Assembly (NCBI GenBank): GCA_946497925.1 | Contig: CAMMMG010000002.1 | Location: 398-64,397 of the forward strand | Direction of reading: 5' to 3' | DNA length: 64,000 nucleotides | DNA from: an uncultured Mycoplasmatota bacterium | GTDB taxonomy: Bacteria > Bacillota_I > Bacilli_A > RF39 > UBA660 | In this document: in pieces, positions 3,218 to 28,425 of the stretch | Layout: each line of letters opens with the position of its first letter | Position numbering within the stretch: position 1 is the stretch's first letter | Translations under genes and position numbers: made by a program | The notes under the pieces: generated by a model | Databases searched by the model: none | What the model was told of the DNA's origin: nothing | The model's input: the letters and a program-made list of their open reading frames with translations, nothing else

Positions 3218-3226
3218 AAATGCCTC

Positions 3227-5161
3227 CTATTTTTCCTTATCTAATTGCCATACTCTTATTAAAAACTTATACCTTTTTTCTATTTCAGATTGTTGTTTTT
3301 TAGAAAATTTATACATAGTTCCTATTTCTTTATGAACCTTTTTAATTTCGTTCAACTGAGCTTGCTTTTTATTCAAACTAGTAACATTATTACCATGAAC
3401 ACGATAAAAATTATAAGGCTTATTTATAAAAGATATCTTACCTTCTCTCATAACATTAACATAAAATAACCAATCTCCAGCTTGTTTATATTTACCTGAC
3501 TTAGTAAAATACTTTTTATAATTGCCATTTTTAAAAATAACAGAAGAAACATTAGCAATAGTACAATTCAAATAAGCATATTTTTTTATTTCATCTTCAC
3601 CATTTTCAACAAAGTCATGATCCCAATGACCTGATTTCAATATATCTATTTCAGGTTTTATAGAAGGAAGAATTATCTTACCAAATTTATCTATAAAAGC
3701 TGTATCAGCATATGATATTACTATAGAATCATCTTCTTTAATTGGTTTTAAAACAGATTTTAAAAATTGTTTTTGACAAAAATCATCTGCTTCTGCAATC
3801 CAAACATAATCACCTGTAGCATTTTCAAAACCTTTCTCCCATTGTTTAAAAGCTGAACCACTATTAACATCATTATAATTTTTTTTAATATTAATATATT
3901 CTTTAAGCTTATCAACAAGATCATCTATAACTTCTCTACTATTATCTTTAGAACAATCATCCAAAATTATTAACTCATCTATTTTTTCAGTCTGATATAA
4001 AATACTATAGATTCTCTGATACATAAAATCAGCATAATTATAGTTTGGTATTACTACAGAAACAGTTTTACCACTTCCTTTTTTCTTACTTTGTTTTTCT
4101 GCCAAAGAAATAAGCTTATCTATAGTTATATCAGAAGGAATAACTGATTTAACTATATTTCTAGAATAAAACTTATAAAAAGATATCATAATATTTGCTA
4201 AAAAAGAAAAGCCACTATCATTAAATTTTAAGTAAAGTTTATAATAATATTTATGTTTAGTACCCTGAGTTTCTAAAAAGTTCCAAAAATAATGATTTTG
4301 TCTTATTTTATATTTAGCACTTCTCTTATATAATTCTTTTAAGAATTTATAACGTTTTATAAACTTATCTTCTTTAGGTGGAATATATAAATAAAACATA
4401 ATAACCTGTTGATATATAATTATATCAAAATACTTTTTATATCCTTTTACTTTATTGATATGGCTCTCTAAAATATCAAGTGCTTTAAAAATATCAAATC
4501 TTTTAAAGCTTAAAGTATCATTCTGTGTAGATTTTTGTCTTTGAATATAATTATAATAAGTATCACCAGTATAAGCTATTTTTTTAGCATTTATTATAGC
4601 AGCTAATACAGTAGCAACATCTTCATTCATTATCCCAGTTGGAAATGGAAACTTTTCTAATAACTCTTTTCTAAATAACTTATTACAAGGTGAAGCTGCA
4701 TGACCTTGATTTAAGATATTCTCTTTTGTAACTCTTCCTTCACATTCAACAGCCCTTACATCAGTTTGATTTTCAAAAGATGAATCATACTTTATAAAGA
4801 TATCACATACTGCAACATCAGCTTTTTCTTTAGTAATAGCTTTATATAATTCTTCATAAAAATTATCTTCTAAATAATCATCGGAATCAATAAAAGATAT
4901 TAAATCATATTTAGCTTCTTTTAAAGCAATATTTCTATTATAACCAGCACCATGATTTTCCTTATTTTTAATTAGTTTTATATAAGGACATTTTTTCATA
5001 TAACGATTAATAATAGAAACTGTTTTATCAGTAGAACAATCATCAACTAAGATAATTTCAAACTTTTCTAAGTTTTGATTCAAAATAGAATCTAAGCATT
5101 TTTCAATATATTGTTCTGTATTATAACATGGTATTATAATTGATATTCCTTCTTTTTTCAT
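3227..5161 (-). CDS. Two-domain family-2 glycosyltransferase
   Basis: Two GT-A modules are present: ISIIIPCYN...VDDCSTD...DSDD near the N-terminus and VSVVIPNYN...LDDCSKD...EADD from ~aa 365. Confidence 0.8.
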   Translation of the reverse strand: MKKEGISIIIPCYNTEQYIEKCLDSILNQNLEKFEIILVDDCSTDKTVSIINRYMKKCPYIKLIKNKENHGAGYNRNIALKEAKYDLISFIDSDDYLEDNFYEELYKAITKEKADVAVCDIFIKYDSSFENQTDVRAVECEGRVTKENILNQGHAASPCNKLFRKELLEKFPFPTGIMNEDVATVLAAIINAKKIAYTGDTYYNYIQRQKSTQNDTLSFKRFDIFKALDILESHINKVKGYKKYFDIIIYQQVIMFYLYIPPKEDKFIKRYKFLKELYKRSAKYKIRQNHYFWNFLETQGTKHKYYYKLYLKFNDSGFSFLANIMISFYKFYSRNIVKSVIPSDITIDKLISLAEKQSKKKGSGKTVSVVIPNYNYADFMYQRIYSILYQTEKIDELIILDDCSKDNSREVIDDLVDKLKEYINIKKNYNDVNSGSAFKQWEKGFENATGDYVWIAEADDFCQKQFLKSVLKPIKEDDSIVISYADTAFIDKFGKIILPSIKPEIDILKSGHWDHDFVENGEDEIKKYAYLNCTIANVSSVIFKNGNYKKYFTKSGKYKQAGDWLFYVNVMREGKISFINKPYNFYRVHGNNVTSLNKKQAQLNEIKKVHKEIGTMYKFSKKQQSEIEKRYKFLIRVWQLDKEK

Positions 5162-5171
5162 AATGTACTCC

Positions 5172-6065
5172 TTATATTTTTTTATTTTTAATCATAACTT
5201 CTTTTAATAGTTTTAATGATTTTAATATATTACTTTCTCTAAAAATTAATTTTCTATATAAATCATCATTATAATCATAATTAAGAGAAGACCCTTCTTT
5301 ATGAAATATTTCTATATTAGGATCATAAATAAATTTTAAATTATCTTTTCTTCTACGATAATTTAAAAACTCTTCTTCATGATAAAGAAATGTACGAGAA
5401 TAAAAGCAATCTTTATATTTATCATAATATCTTTTAGAAAAGATAATTGCACACCCATGAAGGGCTACATCTTCTAAAAAACAATCAGCATTTTCCAAAT
5501 GACTAGGTTTCTTTATAAGTCTTTTTATTTTAGAATAAGTTCTTAGTAAAAACCTTTTAAACTTACTATTATAAATTCCTAACAACATTTCTGACTTATC
5601 AATCGCTTTATTTACTTTATCTAAAGTATCATAAACTGGAAAAGGATTTACTGAATCTCCTTCATTAGTTAGAATTTTAAATCCTAATGCATCAAAAGGA
5701 TGCTCTTTATAAATATTTTGTATTCTCTTTAATAAATCTTTTTGAGTTAATAAAGTATCATTATTAATAACAATCATAAAATCAGGCTGATACTTTTCTC
5801 TTGCTAATTCTATTCCCTTATTATTACCTTTAGCAAAACCAATATTTTCTTCTAAAATTATTAGATCATCTACTAAAGTCTTTAACTTTCTATCATCTTC
5901 TTCTACACCACTATTATTATCTACAACAATAATTTTATAGTTCTTATCTTCAAGAGTTCTAATTGAATTTATACACTCTATCGTATCATTAATATTCTTA
6001 TAATGTAAAATTATAAATACTGCTTCTACTCTTTCCTTTTTTTTCATCTTATAATTCCTCAGCAA
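5172..6065 (-). CDS. Family-2 glycosyltransferase (rhamnosyltransferase-like)
   Basis: It has VFIILHYKN...VVDNNS...INNDT motifs. Its start overlaps the end of the permease gene by 17 nt. Confidence 0.7.
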   Translation of the reverse strand: MLRNYKMKKKERVEAVFIILHYKNINDTIECINSIRTLEDKNYKIIVVDNNSGVEEDDRKLKTLVDDLIILEENIGFAKGNNKGIELAREKYQPDFMIVINNDTLLTQKDLLKRIQNIYKEHPFDALGFKILTNEGDSVNPFPVYDTLDKVNKAIDKSEMLLGIYNSKFKRFLLRTYSKIKRLIKKPSHLENADCFLEDVALHGCAIIFSKRYYDKYKDCFYSRTFLYHEEEFLNYRRRKDNLKFIYDPNIEIFHKEGSSLNYDYNDDLYRKLIFRESNILKSLKLLKEVMIKNKKI

Positions 6066-6834
6066 ATCTTTTTTCCAATTTTTTGAATATTTGATAACCT
6101 ACAATAAGTATGACGAAACTAATAATTCCAACTATAGCAAGTATAGAAAAATCTGGTAATACTTGATAATAGAATATATCTCTATATGCATTAATAATAT
6201 GGGCCATAGGATTAATATTCATAATCCATTCAAAAGCTGTATTTGCAAACAATTCACTAGAATATAAGATAGGTGTAGCATAAAATAACATCATAACAAT
6301 AAAATTAACTATATATTCAATATCTCTAATATAAACATTTATAGCACTTAAGATAAATATAATACCTAAGGATAAAATATATTGAATAAGAGTAATTAAT
6401 GGTAAGAGTAACATAACAAGTGATAAACTCATTCCACCAAAAATAATAAATATTAAAATAATAATACAAGAAATAAAGAAATTAATTAAACCACTAGTAA
6501 CTACCGATATTGGTAATATTTCTCTAGGAAAATAAACTTTCTTTATTATATTACCATTATTAACTATAGTAGTAGTTCCCTGATTAACTACAGTAGTAAA
6601 AAAGTTCCAAGGAATAATTCCTATTATAAGAAATATAACATAATTAGGTTCTGAACTTTTTAAAATTAATGGAAAAACTATTGCGTATACTAAAACCATT
6701 AATAATGGATTAATAAAAGACCATAAAACACCTAGAAAAGATCCTTTATATTTACCACGTATTTCCTTTCTGACATTTGTCTTTAAAAGTTCACGATATT
6801 GATATAAATCTTTAAAAATCTTCATTATAATCAC
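6049..6834 (-). CDS. ABC-2 type polysaccharide/teichoic-acid export permease (Wzm/TagG-like)
   Basis: 261 aa with 6 TM helices. It lies immediately downstream of the ATPase, with stop and start adjacent. Confidence 0.8.
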   Translation of the reverse strand: MIIMKIFKDLYQYRELLKTNVRKEIRGKYKGSFLGVLWSFINPLLMVLVYAIVFPLILKSSEPNYVIFLIIGIIPWNFFTTVVNQGTTTIVNNGNIIKKVYFPREILPISVVTSGLINFFISCIIILIFIIFGGMSLSLVMLLLPLITLIQYILSLGIIFILSAINVYIRDIEYIVNFIVMMLFYATPILYSSELFANTAFEWIMNINPMAHIINAYRDIFYYQVLPDFSILAIVGIISFVILIVGYQIFKKLEKRFAEEL

Positions 6835-7581
6835 CTACTGACATATTTTTAAGTATTCCTCTACCACTTTATTTGGCTCATCATCCATTTTAACTTTTCC
6901 TTCATAAATCCATACCGCTCTAGTACACAATTTTTTTACAGCATTTAAATCATGAGTAACAATAACAATTGTTTTATCACTTTTCTTAAGTTCATCTAAC
7001 TTAGCAAAACACTTTTCTTGAAAATGTTGATCTCCTACAGCCAAAATCTCATCTACTAATAAAATATCTGCATCAACATTAATAGCAATAGAAAAAGCAA
7101 GTCTCATATACATTCCAGAAGAATAAGTACGTACTGGGCTATCAATAAAATTATCTAGTTCAGAGAATGAAATAATATCATCCAATCTTTTATCTATTTC
7201 AGATTTTGACAATCCAAAAATAGAAGCATTGAAATAAATATTTTCCCTTCCTGTGAAATCAGGATGAAACCCAGCTCCTAATTCCAAAAGAGATGTTAGT
7301 TTTCCATTAGTAACAATTGTCCCCTTATTAGGATAAATAATCTTAGTCATTAACTTTAAAAGTGTAGATTTACCACTACCATTAGTACCAACTAAAGCAA
7401 CAGTTTCTCCTTTTTTTATATCAAGATTAATATTTTCTAAAACTATCCTATTTTCGGCTTTATTACGAGTAATATTAACAAGCCTTTCTTTTAATGTATT
7501 TGGTTTATCATAATATAGTTTAAAATACTTTGTAACATTTTTTACTCTTATAGCAAATTCACTATCTTTTTTAGCCATCAA
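6835..7581 (-). CDS. Polysaccharide/teichoic-acid export ABC ATPase (Wzt/TagH-like, no C-terminal carbohydrate-binding extension)
   Basis: Walker A GTNGSGKST, signature YSSGMYMRL and Walker B ILLVDE are present. At 248 aa it consists of the NBD only. Confidence 0.85.
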   Translation of the reverse strand: MMAKKDSEFAIRVKNVTKYFKLYYDKPNTLKERLVNITRNKAENRIVLENINLDIKKGETVALVGTNGSGKSTLLKLMTKIIYPNKGTIVTNGKLTSLLELGAGFHPDFTGRENIYFNASIFGLSKSEIDKRLDDIISFSELDNFIDSPVRTYSSGMYMRLAFSIAINVDADILLVDEILAVGDQHFQEKCFAKLDELKKSDKTIVIVTHDLNAVKKLCTRAVWIYEGKVKMDDEPNKVVEEYLKICQ

Positions 7582-7647: not shown

Positions 7648-10152
7648 TTAAACTAATTTAACAACATTTTTGCCATCTCTACAAAAATCATCATCTAAAT
7701 ACAATACTTTTTCTAAATCACCACTACTTTTATTTAAAAATTGACACAAGAAATTATAATGAGCATTTATTGTTTTAATTTCAAACGGCTTCAATGATTC
7801 ATGTTTATAAGATTTTAAACCATCAATAGTTCCACAATATATAGAATCAAGATACTTCTTCTTTTGACGGTTAAAAGTACCATCTTTAAAAACCGGCTTA
7901 TTATTATTAAAGCAAACTAACTGTCCTTCAGGAGCAGAAAGAAAAGATTCCAAATATAATGATTTTTTATAAAAATTGTTTTCAATATTAATCTGACCAT
8001 TATTATCTATATTAAAACATCCAATGATATTACAACCTATTTCTATAACCTTTTTAGGATTGTTTAAAGCAAAATAATAGCCATCAATTTTCTTATTTAA
8101 TAATTTAGATAAATAATATTGAATAGTTCCAGAATAACCTAAATCAACAATTCCAAAGTTGTGATTTCTTATATTTTTACATGTTCTTTTTATATAATTT
8201 AGATAATTCGTTCTTTCATTGGCAGCATTTTTTAATATTACCAAACTATTATCTTTAATAATTTTTTCTACTTTTGAAAAATCATCTGGTAGTTTAATTT
8301 CTTCTTTTGACAAATTAGGAATTGTAACCCCAAATCGATTTTCAAAATAGTTATCTATAGAACCAATATATTCATATTTAGCTATTTCTAACAAATCTTC
8401 AATTGTTTTACAAAAAGATACTGTAACTGCTCTTCTAGATGAAAGAAAATAGATGCTATTTACTTTTGCTTTTGCAAACAATTCACAATATTTTTCATAA
8501 ATTGGTTGTAAATAATAGCCTTCTCTAGAAACAAAAAGAATATTTTGCACCTTATTATTTTTTACAAACCAATCAAAGAAAGTATAAAATATTGGAGCCA
8601 AAAAGTAATAACCATATAATTTTAAATTATTATCTATTTTTTCCTTGCTAGTAAATGGTGAATTAAATATAAATTTATTATATATAATAGCTAGTTCTGA
8701 ACGAATTTTCAGTTCTTTCTCTTCTAAAATATTGCTATATTTCAAATAATCTTGACTGCTTAATATTTTTATTGCAGCACGATTTCGCTTTAGAACTTGA
8801 AGATAATCAGAATTATAGTTATCTCCAACATGAATAGTTTTCTCTCTATTATTAGAAAAATATTTATCCCATAACTCACCACTATCTTTTCGCATATTTT
8901 GTTCATTTGATAAATATAGCTTTCTATAATCATTAATACCACATTTCTTCAATATTTTTACAATAGTATCTTTGGATAAATACATATCTGAAATAAGATC
9001 TATTTTCTTTCCCATTTTTAATAATTTTTTATATAACTTTACTACATCATAGCGAGGTGTAATATGTTCTAATTCTAAAGATATTTCAAGTTCTTTTAAC
9101 TTCTCTATTTCCGTTTTAGTTAATTTTTCAGATTTTAACATAAAGTTATAAATGTCATCTAAATTGACATCTCTGCCTAATGATTTTACTGCTTCCAGTT
9201 CCGCTTTTTTTCTTATTTTCAAAAAATGATCAGATAACTTTAAATTAGATTTTTCTTCTATTAAATTAAAAATATCATCAGGTATTAATACGGTTCTTGT
9301 AACTAAAGTATCAAAAATATCAAAAGTAATAGTTTCATACTGAAGTAAAATATCTAAAAGATTTGAATAAGAAATAGAAAATGTAGGTACTAATTCATTG
9401 ATTTTAATATCAACAAATTGAAATTTTTTTGAAAAAGACATACTATTTTTAGATATAATTTTTAGAGAGTCAAATAATAATTGTCTTTTCAAATAATCCA
9501 TTTCTACAAATTTTTTAATACTTTTTATCTTATCATCTGTAAAAATTTCAGAAGAACACACACACCAATCAATTTTTGTTTTAGTATTTAGTATTGTCTC
9601 TAAAGTACCTGGAGGCCTATTTTCAATCAATTCTATAAATCCAGGATTTAAAGCTAATTTTAATTCGTTTGAATCCCAACAACTTTCGGCAAAGATATAT
9701 GAAGTCTGTTTGTAAAGTATTAATCTCATACATGCCTCTACAAAACCATATTGAAAGTAACATAGTTTTTTTTCAGTTTCGATATCTATAATTATACTAT
9801 ATTTTTTAATATCATCTAAATTATCAAATAAATTTTTTTTATAAATGTGGTTTAAAAAATAAGCTCCCTTAATTTGTTTTTTGTAATCAGTACATATATA
9901 CAAATCAAAAGGAAATAACATTTTTTTTAAAAAATCATTTAATATATTAGTTGTTGGTACAAAATTAATATTAACTGCAATTTTTTTTTCAGAGTATAAT
10001 AAAGGAATGATATCATTATCATTTTTATTAATCTTATAATAATTTAATTCTTCTAGAAATAAATTTCCCAATTTTTGGCTAAACTTAGCCTTATTAATAA
10101 TTTTTATTTTTAATTTTTTTCCAGGAATTATTTTTATATATTTTTTATACAT
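7648..10152 (-). CDS. Large multidomain protein with central HAD-superfamily phosphatase-like domain
   Basis: It has the HAD motifs FDIFDTLVTR (I), ISDMY (II-like) and HVGDNYNSD (IV). About 270 aa N-terminal and ~330 aa C-terminal regions are unassigned. Confidence 0.5.
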   Translation of the reverse strand: MYKKYIKIIPGKKLKIKIINKAKFSQKLGNLFLEELNYYKINKNDNDIIPLLYSEKKIAVNINFVPTTNILNDFLKKMLFPFDLYICTDYKKQIKGAYFLNHIYKKNLFDNLDDIKKYSIIIDIETEKKLCYFQYGFVEACMRLILYKQTSYIFAESCWDSNELKLALNPGFIELIENRPPGTLETILNTKTKIDWCVCSSEIFTDDKIKSIKKFVEMDYLKRQLLFDSLKIISKNSMSFSKKFQFVDIKINELVPTFSISYSNLLDILLQYETITFDIFDTLVTRTVLIPDDIFNLIEEKSNLKLSDHFLKIRKKAELEAVKSLGRDVNLDDIYNFMLKSEKLTKTEIEKLKELEISLELEHITPRYDVVKLYKKLLKMGKKIDLISDMYLSKDTIVKILKKCGINDYRKLYLSNEQNMRKDSGELWDKYFSNNREKTIHVGDNYNSDYLQVLKRNRAAIKILSSQDYLKYSNILEEKELKIRSELAIIYNKFIFNSPFTSKEKIDNNLKLYGYYFLAPIFYTFFDWFVKNNKVQNILFVSREGYYLQPIYEKYCELFAKAKVNSIYFLSSRRAVTVSFCKTIEDLLEIAKYEYIGSIDNYFENRFGVTIPNLSKEEIKLPDDFSKVEKIIKDNSLVILKNAANERTNYLNYIKRTCKNIRNHNFGIVDLGYSGTIQYYLSKLLNKKIDGYYFALNNPKKVIEIGCNIIGCFNIDNNGQINIENNFYKKSLYLESFLSAPEGQLVCFNNNKPVFKDGTFNRQKKKYLDSIYCGTIDGLKSYKHESLKPFEIKTINAHYNFLCQFLNKSSGDLEKVLYLDDDFCRDGKNVVKLV

Positions 10153-10161
10153 ATTAAGCTC

Positions 10162-11604
10162 CTATCGATGAATTTTTTTAGAAATAAAGCGTAATGGTTT
10201 GGTTAATTTCCATGAACGGCTATTTAACAACTCACTTATTTGTCTTTTTTCTTGTTCTAATTGAGACTCTAAATCTTTAATCTCTTTTTTCAAATTTTTT
10301 GGTTGCTGTCTTTCTAGTGCTTTATATTCTTCTAATGTCAATTTTTGACTTTCTTTTAATATTTTCGTAACTCTTTCATTTGGTGATAATTTAAAAATAT
10401 CTTTAGATAAATTCATTTTTTTTAAAACAAATTCTAAATTATAATTATAAATTTCTGTTATTGAAGGTTTTTCTAAACGCCATTTAATATAATCTTTATC
10501 AAACATGAGCTGATAAGGAACATAATATCCAAAAATGAGATAGTTTAAATATTCAATATCACAAATTTTATCATCAATATAATTTAAAGAAGAAACACCA
10601 CCATATAAATACGGAAAATTATCTCCTAAAATGTAAGATGTTCTTCCTAATAACATTGCTTCAAATGCTAAATTTGAACCAATACTAACAATCCTTCTAT
10701 TTTTTAAAATCCATTCCAATGAAGAAGCAGAAGAATCAATATTATATTCATCTTTATATTCATCTTTATTTTTTCTCATAGGATGAATTCTTAAAGAGAT
10801 TTTTTCCTTAGATGCTAATTTATTAACTTGTCTCAAAATATCTTCATCTTTTTTATGACAATTAGCTTCTTGCAAAGGATCATGGTCTGGTCCAATATTA
10901 ACACCAAACTCATACTCTGGAAGACTATATAAGTGATACATATATCTTAATTTTTCTTTAGATAAAAACATTGCTAGTAATTCTTGTCTACTAAAATAAT
11001 CATTTTCTCCCTTATTGTCTGCCAAAAATTTAAAATAATCGTTGTCATTTTTTGTAGCATCGTATTTATCATAAAATTGAAAATACCCAAATTTTTCTCT
11101 ATAAGTAACAGGCCTAAAAGTAGTTTGTTCTAGTAAAATTAAAGTAATATTCTTTTCTTGACAAACATTTTCTAAACTTTTATACCATGTCCAAGTTATA
11201 ATAGCTGAAATATGACCTATATCTTTTTCGATTTGATTTATCTTATTTGAAATCATTTCTTCAAAAAATTTATTTTCTTTTATTAAAATTTCTTTATAAA
11301 ATTCTTCTTCAGTTTTATAACAACATATAACTTTATTTTTTTCTAATTTAGTGATTGGATATTTTTTCAATTTATCCATATCATCATCATCTGGTATTCT
11401 AAACTCATGAATTACATTATAATTTCCTTCGGTATTCAGAAAAGGATACTCTTTCTGTTTTTTATAAACTGATGGTTTCTCAAAATAAGCCTCCTCAGCA
11501 ATAATTGGGTAATCATTCTCTAAAGCAAATTCCATATACTTATAAAAAATCCATAAATAATGGATAGGATTCTTCTCAATACCAAATAAAAATGGAACAA
11601 TCAT
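10162..11604 (-). CDS. Putative ulosonic-acid (Kdo/sialic-type) transferase, KpsC/KpsS (Capsule_synth)-like GT-B with C-terminal coiled coil
   Basis: It has an HP motif (LRIHPMRK) and IVSIGSNLAFEAMLLGRTSYILG resembling the C-terminal half of capsule-synthesis transferases. A coiled coil follows (KKEIKDLESQLEQEKRQISELLNSRSWKLTKPLRF). It sits next to kdsB. Confidence 0.4.
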   Translation of the reverse strand: MIVPFLFGIEKNPIHYLWIFYKYMEFALENDYPIIAEEAYFEKPSVYKKQKEYPFLNTEGNYNVIHEFRIPDDDDMDKLKKYPITKLEKNKVICCYKTEEEFYKEILIKENKFFEEMISNKINQIEKDIGHISAIITWTWYKSLENVCQEKNITLILLEQTTFRPVTYREKFGYFQFYDKYDATKNDNDYFKFLADNKGENDYFSRQELLAMFLSKEKLRYMYHLYSLPEYEFGVNIGPDHDPLQEANCHKKDEDILRQVNKLASKEKISLRIHPMRKNKDEYKDEYNIDSSASSLEWILKNRRIVSIGSNLAFEAMLLGRTSYILGDNFPYLYGGVSSLNYIDDKICDIEYLNYLIFGYYVPYQLMFDKDYIKWRLEKPSITEIYNYNLEFVLKKMNLSKDIFKLSPNERVTKILKESQKLTLEEYKALERQQPKNLKKEIKDLESQLEQEKRQISELLNSRSWKLTKPLRFISKKIHR

Positions 11605-11673
11605 AGATATTTCTCCTTTCTGAATTTATCTTATTTGTTTAAGAGTTTTATATTAAAACACTACAATCTAATC

Positions 11674-12423
11674 TTACCAATGATAACATGATAAATGTTT
11701 TTCTTTAACAATAGCACGAATATGTTCTAAATCCTTAGGTGTATCAACAGATAAACTTTCACTTTCTACTTCAACCATCTTTATTTTTTCACCATTTTCA
11801 AGAAAACGAATTTCATTAACATCCTCAACAATCTCATAAGGACCTTTTTTAGTACTAGCAAAAAAATCTAAAGCTTTTTTATTATATATTAATACACCAA
11901 CATGCTTATAATAATCATAATCCATACTTCCCTTTGGATAAGGAATAGGACTTCTTGAAAAGAACATAGCATAAGACAATTTATCAAATACAACCTTAAT
12001 ATTCGTAAAATCAACAGCTTCTACTGGATTTTTTATCTTAGTCATTAAATTAGCAACATAAACTTTATTACTATCTGGAAGAGACTCAGGAATTATCTTC
12101 TCAATCATTTTAGGATTAATTAAAGGTTCATCTCCATTAATAACAAGATATAAATCTGCCTTAACAGTTTCTGATACTTCCTGTACTCTTTCTGTACTAG
12201 TAGGATGTGTATTTTTAGTTAATATAACTTTAATATTTTTCTCTTTACATACTTTTTCAATTCTCTCATCATCTGTTGCAACATAAACATCATCAAGTCC
12301 TCTAACTTGTTTTACCTGACCATAAACCCACGCTACCATAGGCTCATCTTCAATTAATTCTAAAGGCTTACCTTTAAAGCGTGAAGATTGATAACGTGCT
12401 GGAATAACTGCCACTACTCTCAT
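11674..12423 (-). CDS. kdsB: 3-deoxy-manno-octulosonate cytidylyltransferase-like (CMP-Kdo synthetase family)
   Basis: VAVIPARYQSSRFKGKPL, VINGDEPLI, FFSRSPIPYP, HVGVLIY, GEKIKMVEV and VDTPKDLEHI align along the E. coli KdsB sequence as I recall it. Confidence 0.8.
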   Translation of the reverse strand: MRVVAVIPARYQSSRFKGKPLELIEDEPMVAWVYGQVKQVRGLDDVYVATDDERIEKVCKEKNIKVILTKNTHPTSTERVQEVSETVKADLYLVINGDEPLINPKMIEKIIPESLPDSNKVYVANLMTKIKNPVEAVDFTNIKVVFDKLSYAMFFSRSPIPYPKGSMDYDYYKHVGVLIYNKKALDFFASTKKGPYEIVEDVNEIRFLENGEKIKMVEVESESLSVDTPKDLEHIRAIVKEKHLSCYHW

Positions 12424-12437
12424 ACTTTCTCTTCCTC

Positions 12438-14045
12438 CTAATCAATATTTTTAGATGGGGTCAATGTTTTAATTAACATCTTCTCTTGATATTTCTTTAT
12501 ATTTCTTTCCATCGTTGAATTTAAATTATCAATATAATTCTTATCAAGTAAATAAGCAATATCACTTTGATAAAAATTTTCTTCCATACAAGAAGTAAAA
12601 CCATCAAAGCCTGCTAAAACAACATTTTTAACATTTGCATGACTTAAAATATTCAAACAAACTAATAGAGCTGAATCAGAAACTCCATCAAGTTTAGACA
12701 ATGAATTTCTATAATCAAAAATAAGAGTGTTTTCATTATCTTCAATACTAATATTAGAAGTAATCATTTTAATATCATCAGGAGTTAAATCATCACAAGA
12801 TTCCTGATATCTTTTTCTATTACTATAAAACACTGCATTATGCTTATGTAGATTAGGATTATTAATAGTAATAACGAAACAATTAGAATTATCTATATAA
12901 TTATCCAACTGTTCTTGATAAGTTATAATACTCTTACCAGGACCAATCAAAATAACTTCTTTTTCTTTAACTAAATCAGATAACCTTTCATAAGAAGCAT
13001 CATCTAAATATGTATGATCATTATAAATTTGATATAGTTCCTCAATATAAGCGGAATCATATTCTGTCTTTTTCTGTTCACTAATCATCTGAACAACTTT
13101 ATGAATATCACTACTACTAAGCATTCTCTTATTTAATAAATATAAGATATATGATGGATGGCAAGCATAGATAGCAGATAAATAATATGGTAAAGAATAA
13201 CCCCAGGGATTTTCACTTTTAATCTTTTCTAAAATATTATCTGAAGCTTCTAATAATGGTGATAATGAATAATTTTTTCCTTCTTTTTCATTTAAATAAT
13301 TGGCAATAAGCTCAGTAGGTAAATTACCAGCTCCTCTTCCCATTCCATAAATAGAACTATCAATAACTATATTTCTATCTTCAGAAGTATTTTCTATAAA
13401 AGCAAGAGCATTTGCAAAAGCCATTTGTAAATTATTATGCACATGAAATGCTAATTTAGTTTCAGCCTTTAAATTTTCATCAAATAACTTTGATAAATAA
13501 ATAACATCTTGTGGAGTCATTTGCCCAAAAGTATCTACAATTGCTAATCCTTCTAAATCAAGTTCTTCATTACAAATACGAATCATTTCTCTAATCTCTT
13601 CTTCAGTATAACCCAATATAACTGTAGGCTGCAAAAACAAACGATACCCTTTTCTTCTAATTTCCTTAGCATATTCAATTGCCTTTGGTAAACTTTTCTT
13701 ATGAAAAGACATTCTTAATATATTATCACTATTACTGCATAAAGGTAAATTTTCAATATTATATTTCTCCCCTAATAACATTAATGTATATTGATTTTCC
13801 TCAGTATTAGCAATTAAATTCTGTTCTTCTAACTCTTCCATTCTTCTATATTCAGTTCTATCAACAGAGTATTCTTCTTTAGTATCCATTAAATAACCAC
13901 ATTCTATTAACTCAATCTTTGCCTCTTCTAGATAATTTATTAATTGTTTAATATCGTCATAACCAAACTCATTATCATTAACATAGCCACCATCCCTTAA
14001 AGTACAATCTAATATCTCTATTTTTCTCATTTTAAACTTCCTCAC
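12438..14045 (-). CDS. Fusion: HMGL-like (DRE-TIM) pyruvate aldolase domain + DUF115/MptE-like domain
   Basis: The N-terminal part has ILDCTLRDGGY and HVHNNLQMAFANALA (metal-binding H-x-H). The C-terminal part has VILIGPGKSI and SALLVCLNILSHANVKNVVLAGFDGF, typical of the DUF115 (Maf/MptE-like) fold. Confidence 0.6.
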   Translation of the reverse strand: MRKFKMRKIEILDCTLRDGGYVNDNEFGYDDIKQLINYLEEAKIELIECGYLMDTKEEYSVDRTEYRRMEELEEQNLIANTEENQYTLMLLGEKYNIENLPLCSNSDNILRMSFHKKSLPKAIEYAKEIRRKGYRLFLQPTVILGYTEEEIREMIRICNEELDLEGLAIVDTFGQMTPQDVIYLSKLFDENLKAETKLAFHVHNNLQMAFANALAFIENTSEDRNIVIDSSIYGMGRGAGNLPTELIANYLNEKEGKNYSLSPLLEASDNILEKIKSENPWGYSLPYYLSAIYACHPSYILYLLNKRMLSSSDIHKVVQMISEQKKTEYDSAYIEELYQIYNDHTYLDDASYERLSDLVKEKEVILIGPGKSIITYQEQLDNYIDNSNCFVITINNPNLHKHNAVFYSNRKRYQESCDDLTPDDIKMITSNISIEDNENTLIFDYRNSLSKLDGVSDSALLVCLNILSHANVKNVVLAGFDGFTSCMEENFYQSDIAYLLDKNYIDNLNSTMERNIKKYQEKMLIKTLTPSKNID

Positions 14046-14050
14046 TACTT

Positions 14051-16288
14051 TTAATAATAAAATATATTTAAATCAACATTACCAGTAATACCAGGGAGAC
14101 TACCAGAAGAAGTATATTGCCATCCTCTATGTGGTAAAGTATATCCACAATCTCCGTTAGTATAATGTGCTATCCAATCAACCATACTTCTTGTATTATC
14201 ATTAAATCTTGTCATTGCATAATTTAAATAAGTATAAACTTTAGCATCATAACCTGCTGCTTTAAGACGATTAATATAATTATAAACCATCCCTTCATAA
14301 GCTTCCTTAGATATATCATCAGAACTTTCATTTTGACTTGGAATACTATAACTCTCAATATCATAATAAATTGGATAATCTGGACTAACATTATATCTAT
14401 TAAGCATTTGAATCGTAGCATTAGCTTCAAAAATAGCTTCAGCAGGATTATGAGCATAACTATATAAATAAACACCATAAGGAATATTTAAACGTTTTAC
14501 ATTACTTAAATATTCAGAAAATTTTATATCTTCATAACCATTATAACCAATTCTTAAAATAACTCCATCAATTTCTCCAGAATTCCACAAAGTATCCCAA
14601 TCAATATTTCCTTGATGATAAGATACATCTGCTAATCTTTTAAAGTTCTGTTCACGTAAAACTCCATCCTGATTAAAGCGATACCAAACACCATGAATTT
14701 TTTGAACTCCAGTTGCCATACTACCATCATAATTGTAATAATATGTATTACCATTTATAGTTTGAAAACCAGTTTGAATAACACCGTTTTCATCAAATTT
14801 ATAAACACGACCATCAATTGTCTGAATACCTGTTTGAATGATACCTTCTTGATTAGTATAATATATATATCCTGTTAATGAATGTACCCAACCAATTTGA
14901 ATTTTTCCAGAAAGCTCACCTAAAAAATATCTTTGACCATCTATTGACGTAATACCTTTCAATATTTTTCCATCTTGATCAGTATAGTAACGATCTCCCG
15001 TTAAGGCAGAGGTTACAAAGCCTACTTGAACTTTTCCTGTATACTCTCCTAAGAAGTAATCTTCCCCATCTATTTCTGTAATTCCATATTGCTTTACACC
15101 CAAAATATAATAATAACGATCTAATCCTATATCATAAAATCCTTCAATTAAACTTCCATCTTCTAAAGTATTATAAGTATTACCGTCATATTCAAATTCA
15201 CCTTTATAAATTTTTCCATCTTCATCTGCATAATAATACTTATTATTTAAACTTGATTGAACAAATCCAGTCTGAATTTTTCCTGTATACTCTCCTAAAA
15301 AGTAATCTTCTCCATCTATCGGAGTAATACCTTTCAATATTTTTCCATCTTGATCAGTATAGTAACGATCTCCCGTTAAGGCAGAGGTTACAAAGCCTAC
15401 TTGAACTTTTCCTGTATACTCTCCTAAGAAGTAATCTTCCCCATCTATTTCTGTAATTCCATATTGCTTTACACCCAAAATATAATAATAACGATCTAAT
15501 CCTATATCATAAAATCCTTCAATTAAACTTCCATCTTCTAAAGTATTATAAGTATTACCGTCATATTCAAATTCACCTTTATAAATTTTTCCATCTTCAT
15601 CTGCATAATAATACTTATTATTTAAACTTGATTGAACAAATCCAGTCTGAATTTTTCCTGTATACTCTCCTAAAAAGTAATCTTCTCCATCTATTGGCGT
15701 AATACCTTTCAATATTTTTCCATCTTGATCAGTATAATACCTATCTCCCGTTAATGAAGAAGTTACAAAACCTACTTGAACTTTTCCTGTATACTCTCCT
15801 AAGAAATAATCTTCTCCATCTATTTCTGTAATACCTTTAACTAATTTACCATCAGAATCAAAATAATAAGTCGCTCCATCGATAAAGACAAATCCCTTTT
15901 GTATTATTCCATCCTGATTAGTATAATACACATCTCCTGTTAATGAAGAAGTTACAAAACCTATTTGAACTTTTCCTGTATATTCCCCTAAAAAGTAATC
16001 TTCTCCATCTATTGATGTAATACCTTTCAATATTTTTCCATCCTGATTAGTATAATACATGTCTCCTGTTAATGAAGAAGTTACAAAACCTATTTGAACT
16101 TTTCCTGTATACTCTCCTAAGAAATAATCTTCTCCATCTATTTCTGTAATACCTTTTTGTATTATTCCGTCCTTATAATAATAAAGTGAACCATCTTCTT
16201 CAAAAAAACCAGTTTTACCTAAAGCATTAACATTTAAAAACACCAAACTAATTGCAACTAAAACAACAAAAAATATCTTTTTTTTCAT
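14051..16288 (-). CDS. Secreted GH25 muramidase with N-terminal cell-wall-binding (CW_binding_1 type) repeats
   Basis: It has a signal peptide (MKKKIFFVVLVAISLVF) and ~20-aa G-x-x-x-IDG-x-x-YF repeats. The C-terminal DVSYHQGNIDWDTL...GVILRIGY is a GH25 signature. Confidence 0.8.
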   Translation of the reverse strand: MKKKIFFVVLVAISLVFLNVNALGKTGFFEEDGSLYYYKDGIIQKGITEIDGEDYFLGEYTGKVQIGFVTSSLTGDMYYTNQDGKILKGITSIDGEDYFLGEYTGKVQIGFVTSSLTGDVYYTNQDGIIQKGFVFIDGATYYFDSDGKLVKGITEIDGEDYFLGEYTGKVQVGFVTSSLTGDRYYTDQDGKILKGITPIDGEDYFLGEYTGKIQTGFVQSSLNNKYYYADEDGKIYKGEFEYDGNTYNTLEDGSLIEGFYDIGLDRYYYILGVKQYGITEIDGEDYFLGEYTGKVQVGFVTSALTGDRYYTDQDGKILKGITPIDGEDYFLGEYTGKIQTGFVQSSLNNKYYYADEDGKIYKGEFEYDGNTYNTLEDGSLIEGFYDIGLDRYYYILGVKQYGITEIDGEDYFLGEYTGKVQVGFVTSALTGDRYYTDQDGKILKGITSIDGQRYFLGELSGKIQIGWVHSLTGYIYYTNQEGIIQTGIQTIDGRVYKFDENGVIQTGFQTINGNTYYYNYDGSMATGVQKIHGVWYRFNQDGVLREQNFKRLADVSYHQGNIDWDTLWNSGEIDGVILRIGYNGYEDIKFSEYLSNVKRLNIPYGVYLYSYAHNPAEAIFEANATIQMLNRYNVSPDYPIYYDIESYSIPSQNESSDDISKEAYEGMVYNYINRLKAAGYDAKVYTYLNYAMTRFNDNTRSMVDWIAHYTNGDCGYTLPHRGWQYTSSGSLPGITGNVDLNIFYY
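14949..15698 (-). repeat. Near-perfect 2 x 375-bp tandem duplication inside the lysin gene
   Basis: The same string (gtaatacctttcaatatttttccatcttgatcagtatagtaacgatctcccgttaaggcagagg...) starts at 14949 and 15324. A diverged third copy starts ~15699. The period equals 125 aa. Confidence 0.85.
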
Positions 16289-25659: not shown

Positions 25660-25870
25660 GTGAAACTATGGAGAACATAAGAAATAAAATAAATTTTATT
25701 TCGCCCTTGTCGTTGCCTCCAAGGATTCCTATTTCATAGATAGAGTAACCTCTATTCTCCATAGGCTTAAATTCCGATGGTCGCCACCGTACTAATTTAT
25801 TTTTATATTAAATCGTTTTTTTCTATCTAAAACATTATCTATACTAAACTAACTAAATTATAGTGTAACT
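25660..25870 (-). ncRNA. TnpB-associated omega/right-end RNA region (boundaries approximate)
   Basis: A GC-richer structured stretch lies just 3' of tnpB (GTACGGTGGCGACCATCGG...CCTTGGAGGCAACGACAAGGGCGAAAT on the minus strand). It is enclosed by a 10-nt inverted repeat: CTATGGAGAA at 25666-25675 and TTCTCCATAG at 25757-25766. Confidence 0.5.
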
Positions 25871-27984: not shown

Positions 27985-28425
27985 ACCTCCAATATATATT
28001 CAAATTAATTATTTTTTTACATATATAATTGTAACCTAAGTTTATAACACAAATGTATGTATGTCAATATATCTTTTATAATTAAATAAGTCACTAGTTG
28101 CACAGTATGGCTGTTTAATATATAATCAGTCATTTCTTTAGTTTCAAATAAATCTCTGTACTTTAATATTTAATGCTAATTCTAATAATATGTTTACTTT
28201 TTCAAGTTTATTTCTAGGTTTACTATTCATAGGACTACATAAAAAGTCTTGTAAATTATCTTTATATTTATCTTGTATAAAGTTTTCAATGATAGTAATA
28301 TTTTTTTATCCCCAAGCATAACTTACCTTGAAGAATCAATTCTCTTTTTCATTTTGTTGTCCTCTTTACATTAGCGAGTAAATGTATAGAGGAAACCACA
28401 TCACTATTACACACTCTAAATAATT

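Follow-up and report, generated by a model that had tools for sequence, protein, structure and literature searches.

Gene content of the locus

The stretch of DNA that we analyzed (64 kb; hereafter, the window) contains a run of polysaccharide genes on the minus strand. An earlier note on this DNA had singled out three adjacent ORFs, encoding a fusion protein, a cytidylyltransferase, and a 480-aa glycosyltransferase, and all three are present, on that strand, among the following features.

1664..6065, minus strand: other assembly enzymes of the same locus
1664-3217, minus strand: membrane GT-C/PMT_2-like protein
3227-5161, minus strand: double GT2
5172-6065, minus strand: GT2
6049..6834, minus strand: Wzm-type ABC-2 permease (PF01061, E 1.3e-22)
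6835..7581, minus strand: Wzt-type ABC transporter ATPase, 248 aa, without carbohydrate-binding extension (PF00005)
7648..10152, minus strand: 834-aa protein, predicted HAD phosphatase plus PRPP-dependent ribofuranosyltransferase
10162-11604, minus strand: GT99 protein, whole ORF, 480 aa
10405..11604, minus strand: GT99 catalytic module, residues 1-~400, WbbB-type retaining ulosonic-acid transferase (PF21912)
10165..10335, minus strand: helical/coiled-coil C-terminal tail of the GT99 protein, residues ~424-480
11674..12423, minus strand: KdsB-family CMP-ulosonate synthetase (cytidylyltransferase), 249 aa (PF02348)
12438-14045, minus strand: aldolase–MptE fusion ORF, 535 aa
13011..14030, minus strand: aldolase domain of the fusion, residues ~6-345, DRE-TIM/HMGL-like metal-dependent pyruvate aldolase followed by a helical subdomain
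12441..13010, minus strand: C-terminal domain of the fusion, residues ~346-535, divergent MptE-like/DUF115 Rossmann-type
14051..16288, minus strand: GH25 lysozyme with choline-binding-type cell-wall-binding repeats (PF01183, PF19127, PF01473)

The database gene model of the fusion has 530 aa and begins at Met6 (ATG at 14030), which suggests that the GTG at 14045 probably precedes the true start by five codons. The GH25 lysozyme gene lies directly upstream of the fusion gene, a position kept in two other loci carrying the fusion (L084 and L085); in L004, the closest relative of the window, a 765-aa ORF occupies that place. The order of the GT2, double GT2, and GT-C/PMT_2-like genes is conserved in L002, L004, and L084. 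As had been proposed, the Wzt-type ATPase has no carbohydrate-binding module (ABC_tran is the only Pfam domain in its 248 aa), and CotE at 56744-57280 supports the description of the host as a spore former.

The aldolase–MptE fusion

Residues 8-263 of the fusion match the HMGL-like family (PF00682, E 2.8e-20, 73 bits versus a cut-off of 29), and the CTLRDGG and HVHNN motifs are both there and invariant in an alignment of 30 homologues, which confirms the DRE-TIM aldolase assignment of the earlier note. A profile of the aldolase family detected B. vulgatus BVU_2661 (3dxi; E 6.6e-43) and DmpG (1nvm; E 1.7e-22), the same two proteins that head the Foldseek matches. Compared with DmpG, the aldolase domain keeps R17, D18, H201, and H203, but the catalytic His21 is replaced by a Tyr21 that is invariant in the fusion family, so the aldolase chemistry may differ.

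Relatives of the fusion were confirmed in at least 592 stretches from a species-representative genome collection, and a literature search found no publication on the aldolase–MptE family or its module. We counted neighbors in 82 loci carrying the fusion, scoring linkage to a cytidylyltransferase as a CTP_transf_3 gene within 6 kb. Such a gene is present in 70 of the 82 (median gap, 2 bp), and one locus (L063) encodes a 772-aa cytidylyltransferase–aldolase–MptE triple fusion. A HAD_2 phosphatase adjoins the fusion, with a gap of 0, in 29 loci, and a KdsC-family phosphatase lies near it in seven, the copy in L002 scoring 138.7 bits with TIGR01670 (cut-off 106.95). Also found near the fusion were polysialyltransferase/GT52-like transferases with an HP motif (18 and 11 loci), standalone MptE-like proteins (17 loci), and homologues of the 834-aa ribosyltransferase (16 loci); some of the 82 loci have no recognized ulosonate-transferase family nearby. 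The annotated most frequent gene families near the fusion include no KdsA, NeuB, or SIS. This linkage supports the fusion as an ulosonic-acid synthase, and we see in the module a good lead toward making a CMP-activated 3-deoxy-ulosonic acid without PEP; the fusion is a sugar-making enzyme of an unusual, widespread, and uncharacterized kind. The family may serve more than one pathway, as an acetolactate-synthase-like TPP enzyme occurs in eight of the 82 loci, five of them without a linked cytidylyltransferase.

The C-terminal domain proved homologous to MptE-like/DUF115 proteins, as the earlier note had claimed, but it is divergent. Its ~190 aa have no Pfam match of their own, and PF01973 is matched by six of 20 family members; hhalign against the standalone PF01973 neighbors gave a probability of 94% (E 1.2e-7), and archaeal MptE (8sd5, E 0.0026) ranks first among PDB matches. 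Of the 150 listed out of 546 representative clusters for the domain, roughly half are fusions of ~525 aa; the others are shorter and carry the domain C-terminally. Invariant residues are G-P-G-x-S, N395, S408-N409, R412, T429-S430-N431, D457, and G479-x-D481-G482, and the homologue alignment contains no invariant His. The domain could be a kinase, could bind a nucleotide sugar, or could act as a transferase. It is an obligatory partner of the fused aldolase, and our best guess is that it binds a nucleotide and supplies the aldolase with its aldose, either by phosphorylating that aldose or by freeing it from a nucleotide sugar.

DUF115 proteins of the Maf type are considered to transfer nonulosonic acids. 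Given the homology and the loci in which no other ulosonate transferase was recognized, the domain could instead be a Maf-like ulosonic-acid glycosyltransferase, in which case the fusion would both open and close the pathway, and a second residue would come from the GT99 enzyme. We consider this quite improbable, because many loci hold other dedicated transferases (polysialyltransferase-like, GT99, or standalone MptE-like), the sole relative of solved structure that sequence comparison detected is a pyrophosphokinase and not a transferase, an invariant His is lacking, and it would be unusual to fuse the first step of a pathway to the last while leaving the middle one separate.

Activation and transfer enzymes

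The gene after the fusion encodes a KdsB-family cytidylyltransferase, in agreement with the earlier note. The protein matches CTP_transf_3 (PF02348) with E 4e-45, passes the NCBIfam KdsB subfamily model NF009905 (264 bits versus a cut-off of 255) and NF003952 (250 bits versus 193), falls slightly under the cut-off of the TIGR00466 equivalog (151.7 versus 155.2), and has E. coli KpsU (1gq9, E 3e-48) as its best PDB match.

The 480-aa protein is a true GT99 (WbbB-type) ulosonic-acid transferase. It scores 66.8 bits with Pfam Glyco_transf_99 (PF21912; cut-off 27), the family profile detects WbbB across positions 14-396 (E 3e-44), and WbbB structures are the best Foldseek matches (TM 0.83, E 1e-21) of its AlphaFold model (pLDDT 91.9). 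Alignment equates E159, R164, D242, and R272-x-H274-P275 with WbbB E158, R163, D232, and R-x-H265-P. The HP motif and C-terminal coiled coil that had been described are both supported: H274-P275 is invariant among homologues, and the model places tail helices at 436-460 and 463-479. The tail carries a conserved N-S-x-S-W-K-x-T-K-P-L-R motif (core, S-W-K-x-T-x-P-L-R), with S462, W465, K466, and R472 nearly invariant; in L004, this motif sits between the GT99 module and an extra C-terminal domain. The proposed KpsC/KpsS-like C-terminal half did not hold up, as Pfam found no Capsule_synth match and the protein is GT99/WbbB-like. KpsC structures match the model weakly (Foldseek E ~1e-5, TM 0.3-0.5), and we rejected a KpsC/KpsS-like transferase.

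In the 834-aa protein, an N-terminal extension (1-~265) is followed by a HAD phosphoribosyl phosphatase at ~273-450, and residues ~480-834 form a PRPP-dependent ribofuranosyltransferase module. It matched Bcs3 by phmmer (E 3e-21) over Bcs3 residues 338-723, which comprise CrpP and the start of CriT, and its family profile detected Bcs3 (E 1e-45) and the T. composti ribofuranosyl transferase 7shg (E 4e-38). The HAD motif FDIFDT aligns with Bcs3, and the S542-R543-E544 loop and D670 correspond to Bcs3 S678-R679-D680 and E818. Judged by its sequence, the protein is a putative PRPP-dependent ribofuranosyltransferase with its own HAD phosphatase, of the Bcs3 CrpP-CriT type. This HAD had been suggested as a substitute for KdsC; it probably is not, since it belongs to a ribosyltransferase of the Bcs3 CrpP-CriT/T. 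composti type, and would be expected to act on polymer-bound ribose 5-phosphate rather than on Kdo 8-phosphate.

Sister loci follow the order fusion, cytidylyltransferase, KdsC, GT99, (ribosyltransferase), wzt, wzm, and GT99-like genes adjoin wzt/wzm in the window, L002, L004, L084, L085, L086, and L087. This placement, the catalytic module followed by a helical tail, the WbbB layout of L004 (GT99, coiled coil, further domain), and the conserved GT2 polymerase-like genes are all consistent with a WbbB-like chain terminator. In such a scheme, which we hold to be a tentative possibility, one ulosonic-acid cap would be placed on a GT2-built glycan, the coiled-coil tail would set its length, and the ribosyltransferase would merely decorate or extend the cap, with no ribose–ulosonate repeat. 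The ribosyltransferase is indeed dispensable in several loci: its gene is adjacent to a GT99-like gene in the window, L002, and L086, and it shares a locus with one in L084 (~6.5 kb downstream), but L004, L085, and L087 have GT99 without an adjacent ribosyltransferase, so the polymer is not in general a strictly alternating copolymer. Against chain termination, the Wzt has no carbohydrate-binding module for reading a cap, the helical tail of ~45 residues is short for a ruler, and many unrelated loci likewise pair a ribosyltransferase with ulosonate transferases (compare the K13 polymerase KrkA). Homologues of the 834-aa protein are accompanied by a 509-aa polysialyltransferase-like enzyme in 13 of 16 loci.

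Proposed route and identity of the sugar

We think it likely, though well short of certain, that the genes at 7648-14045 form a four-gene block within a locus for an ABC-transporter-dependent cell-wall polysaccharide in a low-GC, spore-forming member of the Bacilli, and that this block supplies and attaches a CMP-activated Kdo-like 3-deoxy-2-ulosonic acid together with ribofuranose. The best reading is still the earlier one, in which the genes make a 2-keto-3-deoxy sugar acid, activate it with CMP, and transfer it; the KdsB-family enzyme, the GT99 enzyme, and the fusion–cytidylyltransferase linkage all support this. Most likely, these genes of a gut-type Gram-positive produce a Kdo-like acidic sugar, activate it, and add it, along with ribose, to an exported wall polymer.

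The catalytic residues of the GT99 enzyme, the aldolase, and the ribosyltransferase are conserved in alignments. In the proposed route, the DRE-TIM aldolase would join pyruvate to an aldose, probably a phosphorylated one, yielding a 3-deoxy-2-ulosonate (or its phosphate) and standing in for the PEP-dependent KdsA/NeuB synthases. The phosphate, where present, would be removed by a KdsC-type or HAD-IA phosphatase like those encoded in sister loci. The KdsB-family enzyme would, on strong homology, make the CMP-sugar. Equally strong homology predicts that the GT99 enzyme would pass the sugar to the glycan by WbbB-type double displacement, with Asp242 as nucleophile and Glu159 as base, together with His274, and that the 834-aa enzyme would add ribofuranose 5-phosphate from PRPP, its own HAD then taking off the 5-phosphate. 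The product could be a ribose–ulosonate motif or repeat, as KrkA makes for the K13 capsule of E. coli, or a terminal cap near the exporter, as with WbbB.

The reported lack of KdsA, NeuB, KdsC, and KdsD in the window was borne out. No KdsA, NeuB, SIS, or KdsC-type protein was found among ~60 ORFs scanned in the 64 kb, nor was KdsD found there, and phmmer across all six frames of the window detected no KdsC-like or HAD_2 phosphatase. Neither the window nor L004 has a dedicated sugar-acid phosphatase, unlike sister loci with their separate true KdsC-family gene, so dephosphorylation would fall to an enzyme encoded elsewhere or be dispensable.

Ordinary Kdo could also be made by KdsD/KdsA/KdsC encoded elsewhere in the genome, so that only KdsB and GT99 handle Kdo here and the fusion makes another substituent, salvages or degrades a keto-deoxy acid, or transfers a sugar via DUF115. 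The KdsB subfamily matches and closeness to KpsU fit this alternative, as do the CMP-Kdo used by the founding GT99 member and the complete canonical Kdo island documented in a Bacillus strain (PMC4744853). KDG/KDGal-kinase-like genes adjoin the fusion in five loci and could indicate catabolic chemistry. We nevertheless consider it unlikely, given the linkage or fusion to a cytidylyltransferase and the lack of KdsA, NeuB, and SIS among frequent neighbors. Gram-negative lineages make Kdo with KdsA; the fusion module also occurs in such lineages with an extra cytidylyltransferase, which suggests a distinct sugar. Several Kdo contacts of WbbB are also changed in the window GT99: Gln228, Asn179, and Ser233 are replaced, Arg12 is not conserved, and Gly takes the place of the Gln that is invariant in the QxxxD motif of retaining Kdo transferases. 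A GT99 homologue with 38% identity adjoins a NeuB/legionaminic-type nonulosonic-acid pathway. The sugar therefore need not be Kdo, and we infer only that it is Kdo-like.

Kdo-type genes in Firmicutes are less exceptional than the earlier note suggested: reported precedents include a canonical kdsABCD-kpsC island in Bacillus coahuilensis (PMC4744853) and firmicute homologues of the KrkA Kdo-transferase domain (PMC12887879). The repeated pairing of a ribosyltransferase with an ulosonate transferase matches the Kdo-plus-ribose logic demonstrated by experiment for KrkA (PMC12887879).

The aldolase-MptE fusion and its neighbours

The genes considered here lie in a run of co-directional minus-strand genes extending from 513 to ~22000, in a window of ~25% G+C. 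An earlier note, written from the sequence alone, had proposed that three of their open reading frames make, activate and transfer a Kdo-like sugar, and all three proved to be real genes. Together with those just downstream, they are as follows.

12438-14045 (-), 535-aa fusion of an aldolase with an MptE-like/DUF115 domain
fusion residues 8-263 (-), HMGL-like / DRE-TIM domain (PF00682, E 2.8e-20, 73 bits vs a cut-off of 29)
11674-12423 (-), 249-aa cytidylyltransferase
10162-11604 (-), 480-aa GT99 protein
7648-10152 (-), 834-aa protein, HAD phosphatase plus PRPP-dependent ribofuranosyltransferase
6835-7581 (-), Wzt
6049-6834 (-), Wzm

Downstream of the 834-aa gene, Wzt (248 aa, no extra domain) and Wzm are accompanied by two GT2 proteins and a GT-C-like membrane protein; upstream of the fusion are a GH25 lysin with cell-wall-binding repeats, an acyltransferase, an RmlB-like dehydratase and a GtrA/GtrB-like pair. 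The closest genome, an uncultured Bacilli MAG, encodes a fusion protein 89% identical to the window's; database gene models place the start of the fusion at Met6 (530 aa). The outer spore coat protein CotE (56744-57280 (-), E 8.5e-44) and a Mur ligase, both encoded in the window, show the host to be a spore-forming, peptidoglycan-bearing Firmicute.

The best NCBIfam models for the fusion were 4-hydroxy-2-oxovalerate aldolases, with scores far under their cut-offs (TIGR03217, 77 vs 286 bits). Across 30 fusion homologues, the motifs L-D-C-T-L-R-D-G-G-Y and H-x-H-N were invariant, including the pyruvate and metal residues R17, D18, H201 and H203, which align with those of DmpG. The AlphaFold model (pLDDT 87.6) was searched whole with Foldseek, and the aldolase domain dominated the match list; the sequence profile places Bacteroides vulgatus BVU_2661 (PDB 3dxi) in the same family (E 6.6e-43). 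The fusion shares with DmpG, BphI, HsaF and 3dxi a DRE-TIM barrel with a helical subdomain and the conserved Arg, Asp and His-x-His residues. Unlike DmpG, BphI and HsaF, it carries an attached MptE-like domain, sits in glycan rather than aromatic-degradation loci, and has an invariant Tyr21 at the position that aligns with the catalytic His21 of DmpG. Scans of the ~60 window ORFs found no partner acetaldehyde or acylating aldehyde dehydrogenase. Judged by its sequence, the domain is a DRE-TIM barrel with the expected metal site but is not a 4-hydroxy-2-oxovalerate aldolase equivalog.

The C-terminal ~190 residues of the window's fusion gave no Pfam match of their own. A profile of this domain aligned by hhalign with the standalone PF01973 proteins encoded beside homologous fusions (probability 94%, E 1.2e-7), its best PDB match was the archaeal pyrophosphokinase MptE (8sd5, E 0.0026) at the G-x-G-x-S and G-x-D motifs, and 6 of 20 members of the domain family matched PF01973 directly (best E 1e-4). 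These three results bear out the reading of the gene as an aldolase-DUF115 fusion, with the proviso that the DUF115 part is a divergent member of the MptE-like/DUF115 family, as far as profiles can assign it. The G-x-G-x-S motif had also prompted us to consider a SIS/KdsD-like isomerase; we rejected this, since the PDB profile search (E up to 10) returned MptE and no SIS protein, and the hhalign comparison supports an MptE-like domain instead. Among 1.8 billion representative proteins, the domain was found in 546 clusters. About half of the 150 clusters listed are ~525-aa aldolase fusions; in the others the domain forms the C-terminal end of a shorter protein, and many of these shorter forms may reflect truncated gene calls.

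The 249-aa cytidylyltransferase matched PF02348 (CTP_transf_3) at E 4e-45. It scored over the cut-offs of two KdsB subfamily models (NF009905, 264.3 vs 255; NF003952, 250.1 vs 193), marginally under that of the KdsB equivalog TIGR00466 (151.7 vs 155.2) and under that of the equivalog NF003948 (156.8 vs 281). Escherichia coli KpsU was its closest match (E 3e-48), and the GKPL, GDEP and VDTP motifs of the two proteins align. This strong homology places it in the KdsB subfamily, and it is predicted to make a CMP-ulosonate.

We then asked what accompanies the fusion elsewhere. The species-representative genome collection has relatives of it in at least 592 stretches, ranging over Firmicutes, Bacteroidota, Proteobacteria, Spirochaetes, Melainabacteria, an Acholeplasmataceae genome and a Methanomassiliicoccaceae archaeon. 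Cultured bacteria with the module include Clostridium leptum DSM 753, Proteocatella sphenisci, Anaeromicropila herbilytica and Bacillus sp. EAC. Neighbourhoods were counted over 82 fusion loci. A CTP_transf_3-type gene lay within 6 kb of the fusion in 70 of them, at a median gap of 2 bp; 33 of these linked enzymes were strongly KdsB-like, and the others were of a shorter type (~220 aa). One Sulfurovaceae MAG (L063:9989-12307) encodes cytidylyltransferase, aldolase and MptE-like domain in a single 772-aa ORF, which is a Rosetta-stone link between the two genes.

Other genes found with the fusion in the 82 loci
HAD_2 phosphatase, abutting the fusion: 29 of 82
Polysialyltransferase/GT52-like HP-motif transferase, 509-aa type: 18 of 82
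Standalone MptE-like protein: 17 of 82
Homologue of the 834-aa ribosyltransferase: 16 of 82
Polysialyltransferase/GT52-like HP-motif transferase, 364-aa type: 11 of 82
Acetolactate-synthase-like TPP enzyme: 8 of 82
KdsC-family phosphatase: 7 of 82 (copy in L002, a comparison locus: TIGR01670, 138.7 vs 106.95)
KDG/KDGal-kinase-like PfkB kinase: 5 of 82

This is the company expected of a pathway to a CMP-activated keto-deoxy sugar acid by way of a phosphorylated intermediate, the phosphorylated ulosonate being suggested by the KdsC-family phosphatases of sister loci. The ribosyltransferase homologue occurs together with the 509-aa polysialyltransferase-like enzyme in 13 of its 16 loci. The TPP enzyme (~605 aa) occurs in loci L009, L051, L059, L065, L072, L077, L078 and L080, in several of which a ~450-aa nucleotidyltransferase-cluster protein is present or a linked cytidylyltransferase is missing, and these loci may represent a second pathway built on the same fusion family.

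The GT99 transferase and the ribosyltransferase

The 480-aa protein matched the GT99 N-terminal domain (PF21912) over residues 14-178, at 66.8 bits vs a cut-off of 27. Its GT99-like family is small, comprising 31 clusters, and a precomputed PF21912 match is present in 29 of the 31 homologue clusters. The family profile aligned with WbbB (5fa0) at E 3e-44, positions 14-396 falling on chain residues 17-382, and all 14 top Foldseek matches to its AlphaFold model (pLDDT 91.9) were WbbB structures (TM 0.81-0.84, E ~1e-21). WbbB uses a nucleophile, Asp232, and a base, Glu158, together with Arg163 and an R-x-H265-P motif (PMC9587256). The corresponding residues in the 480-aa protein are D242, E159, R164 and R272-I-H274-P275. 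Among 30 sequences, E159, R164, H274 and P275 were invariant, and D242 was present in most, including all close relatives. The residues that contact Kdo have changed: Gln228 of the QxxxD motif, an invariant residue that binds the Kdo carboxylate, is G238 here and mostly Gly family-wide; Asn179 is replaced by Y181/K180 and Ser233 by P243; and the Arg12 region is not conserved. Long helices follow at 436-479, ending in a conserved S-W-K-x-T-K-P-L-R motif.

The protein is therefore a GT99 enzyme by sequence, fold and catalytic residues, on a divergent branch without the QxxxD glutamine. Given its intact double-displacement catalytic set, strong homology predicts that it transfers a CMP-ulosonate. 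WbbB itself (Raoultella terrigena / Klebsiella O12; 5fa0, 8csb-f) is a retaining beta-Kdo transferase that terminates an O-antigen chain. The window's protein resembles it over the whole module (E 3e-44, TM 0.83), keeps the catalytic set, has a helical segment after the catalytic module, and is encoded beside wzm and wzt in an ABC-transporter-dependent, rhamnose-associated locus. It differs in that identity is only ~22%, the Kdo contacts are replaced (Gln of QxxxD by Gly; Asn179 and Ser233 by other residues; Arg12 not conserved), the protein stands alone with no polymerase-domain fusion, the host is a monoderm, and the window's Wzt has no carbohydrate-binding module of the kind that recognises the Kdo cap in the WbbB system.

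Two other assignments were considered and set aside. The C-terminal half had been thought to resemble KpsC/KpsS (GT107), but it gave no Capsule_synth match (E up to 10), and KpsC structures matched at E ~1e-5 with TM 0.3-0.5, far under WbbB, so that the resemblance did not hold up. Membership of the KrkA-type GT140 family was likewise rejected: the transferase is a GT99 enzyme, KrkA structures matched weakly (E ~4e-6, TM ~0.3-0.4), and the genes are separate.

Residues 230-586 of the 834-aa protein matched Haemophilus influenzae Bcs3 338-723 (E 3e-21), a region that comprises the ribose-5-phosphate phosphatase CrpP and the start of the PRPP-dependent ribofuranosyltransferase CriT (PMC10299916). 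A profile of 18 family members matched Bcs3 at E 1e-45 and the Thermobacillus composti ribofuranosyl transferase 7shg at E 4e-38, nearly end to end. The HAD motif F277-D278-I-F-D281-T282 (DxDxT), S542-R543-E544 and D670-x-G672 were invariant or aligned, with the S-R-(D/E) loop and D670 falling on Bcs3 D680 and E818. Strong homology thus makes this a member of the PRPP ribofuranosyltransferase-phosphatase family, predicted to add ribofuranose. Both modules, the HAD phosphatase and the PRPP transferase, are shared with the Bcs3 CrpP-CriT region of H. influenzae type b and with 7shg, down to the key residues, but the 834-aa protein lacks a TagF-like CroT domain and an SH3b domain and carries a different N-terminal extension. 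Residues 1-265 gave no Pfam or PDB match. This N-terminal region of ~265 residues is specific to the clade of the window and L002; other family members are 636-893 aa long.

The earlier note had suggested that the HAD domain of this protein might substitute for KdsC. We rejected this as its primary reading, because the protein belongs to the Bcs3/7shg-type ribosyltransferase-phosphatases and because sister loci hold an 834-aa-type protein plus a separate KdsC. The order in sister loci is lysin, fusion, cytidylyltransferase, KdsC, GT99, (ribosyltransferase), wzt, wzm and GT2 genes, and the KdsC gene has been lost from the window and from its closest relative, L004. A six-frame phmmer search of the window (E up to 10) found no KdsC-like or HAD_2 phosphatase, and the 70-bp gap between the kdsB-like and GT99 genes (11605-11673) would not accommodate a gene remnant.

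The GT99-like genes of other loci vary in their surroundings. L004 has no 834-aa gene, and its GT99 protein is 921 aa long (L004:10236-13001), consisting of the GT99 module, a coiled coil, SWKLTSPLR and a further C-terminal domain that appears WbsX-like by eye; the segment after GT99 in this locus looks like a strain-variable, serotype-like cassette. L085 has fusion, 221-aa cytidylyltransferase, GT99, wzt and wzm, and L087 combines wzm, wzt and GT99 with a double GT1, its fusion gene lying 7 kb away. Ribosyltransferase and GT99-like genes share one locus in the window, L002, L084 (~6.5 kb apart) and L086. The last of these has no aldolase fusion and is arranged as follows.

L086 5679-9506 and 9558-16341, GT99-like/ribosyltransferase and NeuB-type region

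Its GT99-like gene is 38% identical to the window's, with a ribosyltransferase homologue just upstream, and the adjoining complete set encodes NeuB, a hydrolysing epimerase (Epimerase_2), PglD, an aminotransferase (DegT), a CBS-nucleotidyltransferase and a CTP_transf_3 protein. Going by its gene content, this set is typical of legionaminic-type nonulosonic acids. L086 suggests that GT99-like enzymes can transfer nonulosonic acids, and the presence of a NeuB-type set beside a GT99-like gene indicates that the Gram-positive GT99 branch is not tied to one sugar.

Proposed route, sugar and polymer

No kdsA, kdsC or kdsD was found in the 64-kb window, and none of the ~60 window ORFs scanned encodes a KdsA-, NeuB-, SIS- or KdsC-type protein. 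Like the canonical CMP-Kdo (KdsD, KdsA, KdsC, KdsB) and NeuB pathways, the proposed module would yield a CMP-activated 3-deoxy-2-ulosonic acid through a KdsB-family enzyme; unlike them, it has no DAHP_synth_1, NeuB or SIS protein, and the fusion of a DRE-TIM pyruvate aldolase with an MptE-like domain takes their place. We infer from gene linkage and enzyme class that the DRE-TIM domain would condense pyruvate and an aldose (more probably in its phosphorylated form) to give a 3-deoxy-2-ulosonate, replacing the PEP-dependent synthase. On the same grounds, the terminal phosphate would be removed by a phosphatase, a dedicated enzyme in most loci that is missing in the window. The KdsB-family enzyme would then form the CMP-ulosonate, the GT99 enzyme would transfer it, the PRPP transferase/phosphatase would supply ribofuranose, and the product, as strong homology of the transporter predicts, would be exported by the ABC-2 system.

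The MptE-like domain is inseparable from the aldolase. The sole solved relative that sequence comparison detected is an ATP-dependent pyrophosphokinase, and the wider MptE-like/DUF115 family includes the Maf transferases; for these reasons we favour, speculatively, a nucleotide-dependent step that feeds the aldolase. The domain might phosphorylate the aldose, in which case the later phosphatase would render a reversible aldol reaction irreversible, or, equally speculatively, it might free the aldose from a nucleotide sugar.

Depending on whether glyceraldehyde 3-P, erythrose 4-P, a pentose 5-P or a hexose 6-P is the partner of pyruvate, the acid formed would range from C6 to C9. The KdsB-like and KdsC-like partners favour a C8 or C9 product, and the KDG-kinase neighbours keep a C6 product possible. 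The module has no linked arabinose-5-phosphate isomerase, and ribose 5-P as substrate would give a Kdo epimer, not Kdo. Gram-negative lineages, in some of which the module also occurs, generally have a KdsA route to Kdo of their own. This, together with the changed Kdo-contact residues of GT99, cautions against assuming that the sugar is Kdo, and on this point the earlier proposal is weakened further by the 38%-identical GT99 homologue beside a NeuB-type set. Its module logic and its idea of a non-canonical synthase, in contrast, are strengthened by the comparative loci.

A functional parallel is KrkA of E. coli K13, which combines a GT140 Kdo transferase, a PRPP ribosyltransferase and a phosphoribosyl phosphatase and polymerises ribose-Kdo (PMC12887879). 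The window, too, pairs a retaining-type ulosonic-acid transferase with a PRPP ribofuranosyltransferase and HAD phosphatase, is ABC-transporter-dependent and needs a CMP-sugar synthetase. Unlike in KrkA, the activities reside in two separate proteins, the ulosonic-acid transferase is GT99 rather than GT140, a 265-aa N-terminal region is added, and the order is HAD then ribosyltransferase, as in Bcs3. By analogy, the system may work like KrkA or like WbbB, although it belongs to neither family arrangement.

These two precedents correspond to two polymers, between which we cannot decide. The first is a ribose-ulosonate motif or repeat, such as KrkA makes for the K13 capsule (PMC12887879), and is favoured by the recurrent pairing of ribosyltransferases with ulosonate-type transferases. 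The second is a WbbB-like terminal cap, which would suit the consistent position of the GT99 gene beside wzt and wzm, the helical tail of the GT99 protein and the finding that the ribosyltransferase is dispensable in several loci. The boldest version of this reading, which we put forward tentatively and at somewhat less than even odds, is that the aldolase-MptE fusion opens a PEP-independent, pyruvate-dependent, multi-phylum route to a CMP-3-deoxy-2-ulosonic acid (perhaps not Kdo, but a C6-C9 acid or an epimer), and that in this locus GT99 and the ribosyltransferase install the sugar in a wall polymer bearing a ribose-ulosonate motif akin to those in E. coli group 2 capsules.

Precedent and other features of the window

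Immune recognition, phage susceptibility and envelope charge are all shaped by ulosonic acids, among them Kdo and the sialic, legionaminic and pseudaminic acids. To our knowledge, every route to these sugars that has been characterised relies on a PEP-dependent synthase of the KdsA or NeuB type. Actinomycetes are known to have teichulosonic acids that contain Kdn. Kdo-type genes in Firmicutes have precedent: a canonical kdsABCD-kpsC island has been described in Bacillus coahuilensis (PMC4744853), and homologues of the KrkA Kdo-transferase domain have been noted in firmicutes (PMC12887879). The new element of the system is the synthase. Our literature search, which extended to DUF115/MptE-like domains with aldolases and to GT99 in Gram-positives, found no paper on the module and none that links an HMGL-like aldolase and a cytidylyltransferase to glycan synthesis; the SugarBase preprint contained nothing relevant, and no relevant paper on an MptE structure turned up. 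The one solved member of the fusion family, 3dxi, is an unannotated structural-genomics entry.

If real, the aldolase route would have substantial upside. It would be a new entry point to ulosonic acids, would explain many of the pairs of aldolase and cytidylyltransferase genes seen in glycan loci of gut bacteria, and would give a function to the 2008 structure 3dxi. The finding of WbbB-type GT99 enzymes and PRPP-dependent ribosyltransferases in monoderm wall-polysaccharide loci carries the logic of capsules and O-antigens over from Gram-negative bacteria to Gram-positive ones.

A promoter and terminator scan was uninformative in this AT-rich DNA (143 promoter-like sites vs 153 expected). The region's best sigma-70-like match (11/12, extended -10 TG), from a scan that was not above chance, lies at 7640-7612 (-), within the 66 bp that separate wzt from the 834-aa gene, and may serve the export and GT2 genes as an internal promoter; a terminator-like hairpin follows the RmlB-like gene at 18259-18237. 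Five bp upstream of the fusion gene is the GH25 lysozyme (14051-16288 (-), 745 aa), which has choline-binding-type wall-binding repeats. A GH25 gene occupies the same position in L084 and L085, and a 765-aa ORF stands at that place in L004. With an autolysin of this type in a wall-polysaccharide locus, the encoded polymer may be its wall receptor.

Near the polysaccharide region lies an IS605 OrfB/TnpB-type gene (25839-26987 (-)) with OrfB_IS605 and Cas12f1-like TNB domains. At 27499-28863 (-), a SocA/Panacea antitoxin-domain gene and a 145-aa AbiEii toxin fragment, matching only the C-terminal part of the model, look from their sequences like a degraded toxin-antitoxin pair. The window also encodes a 231-aa ankyrin-repeat protein (61162-61857 (-)), of a kind uncommon in Firmicutes.
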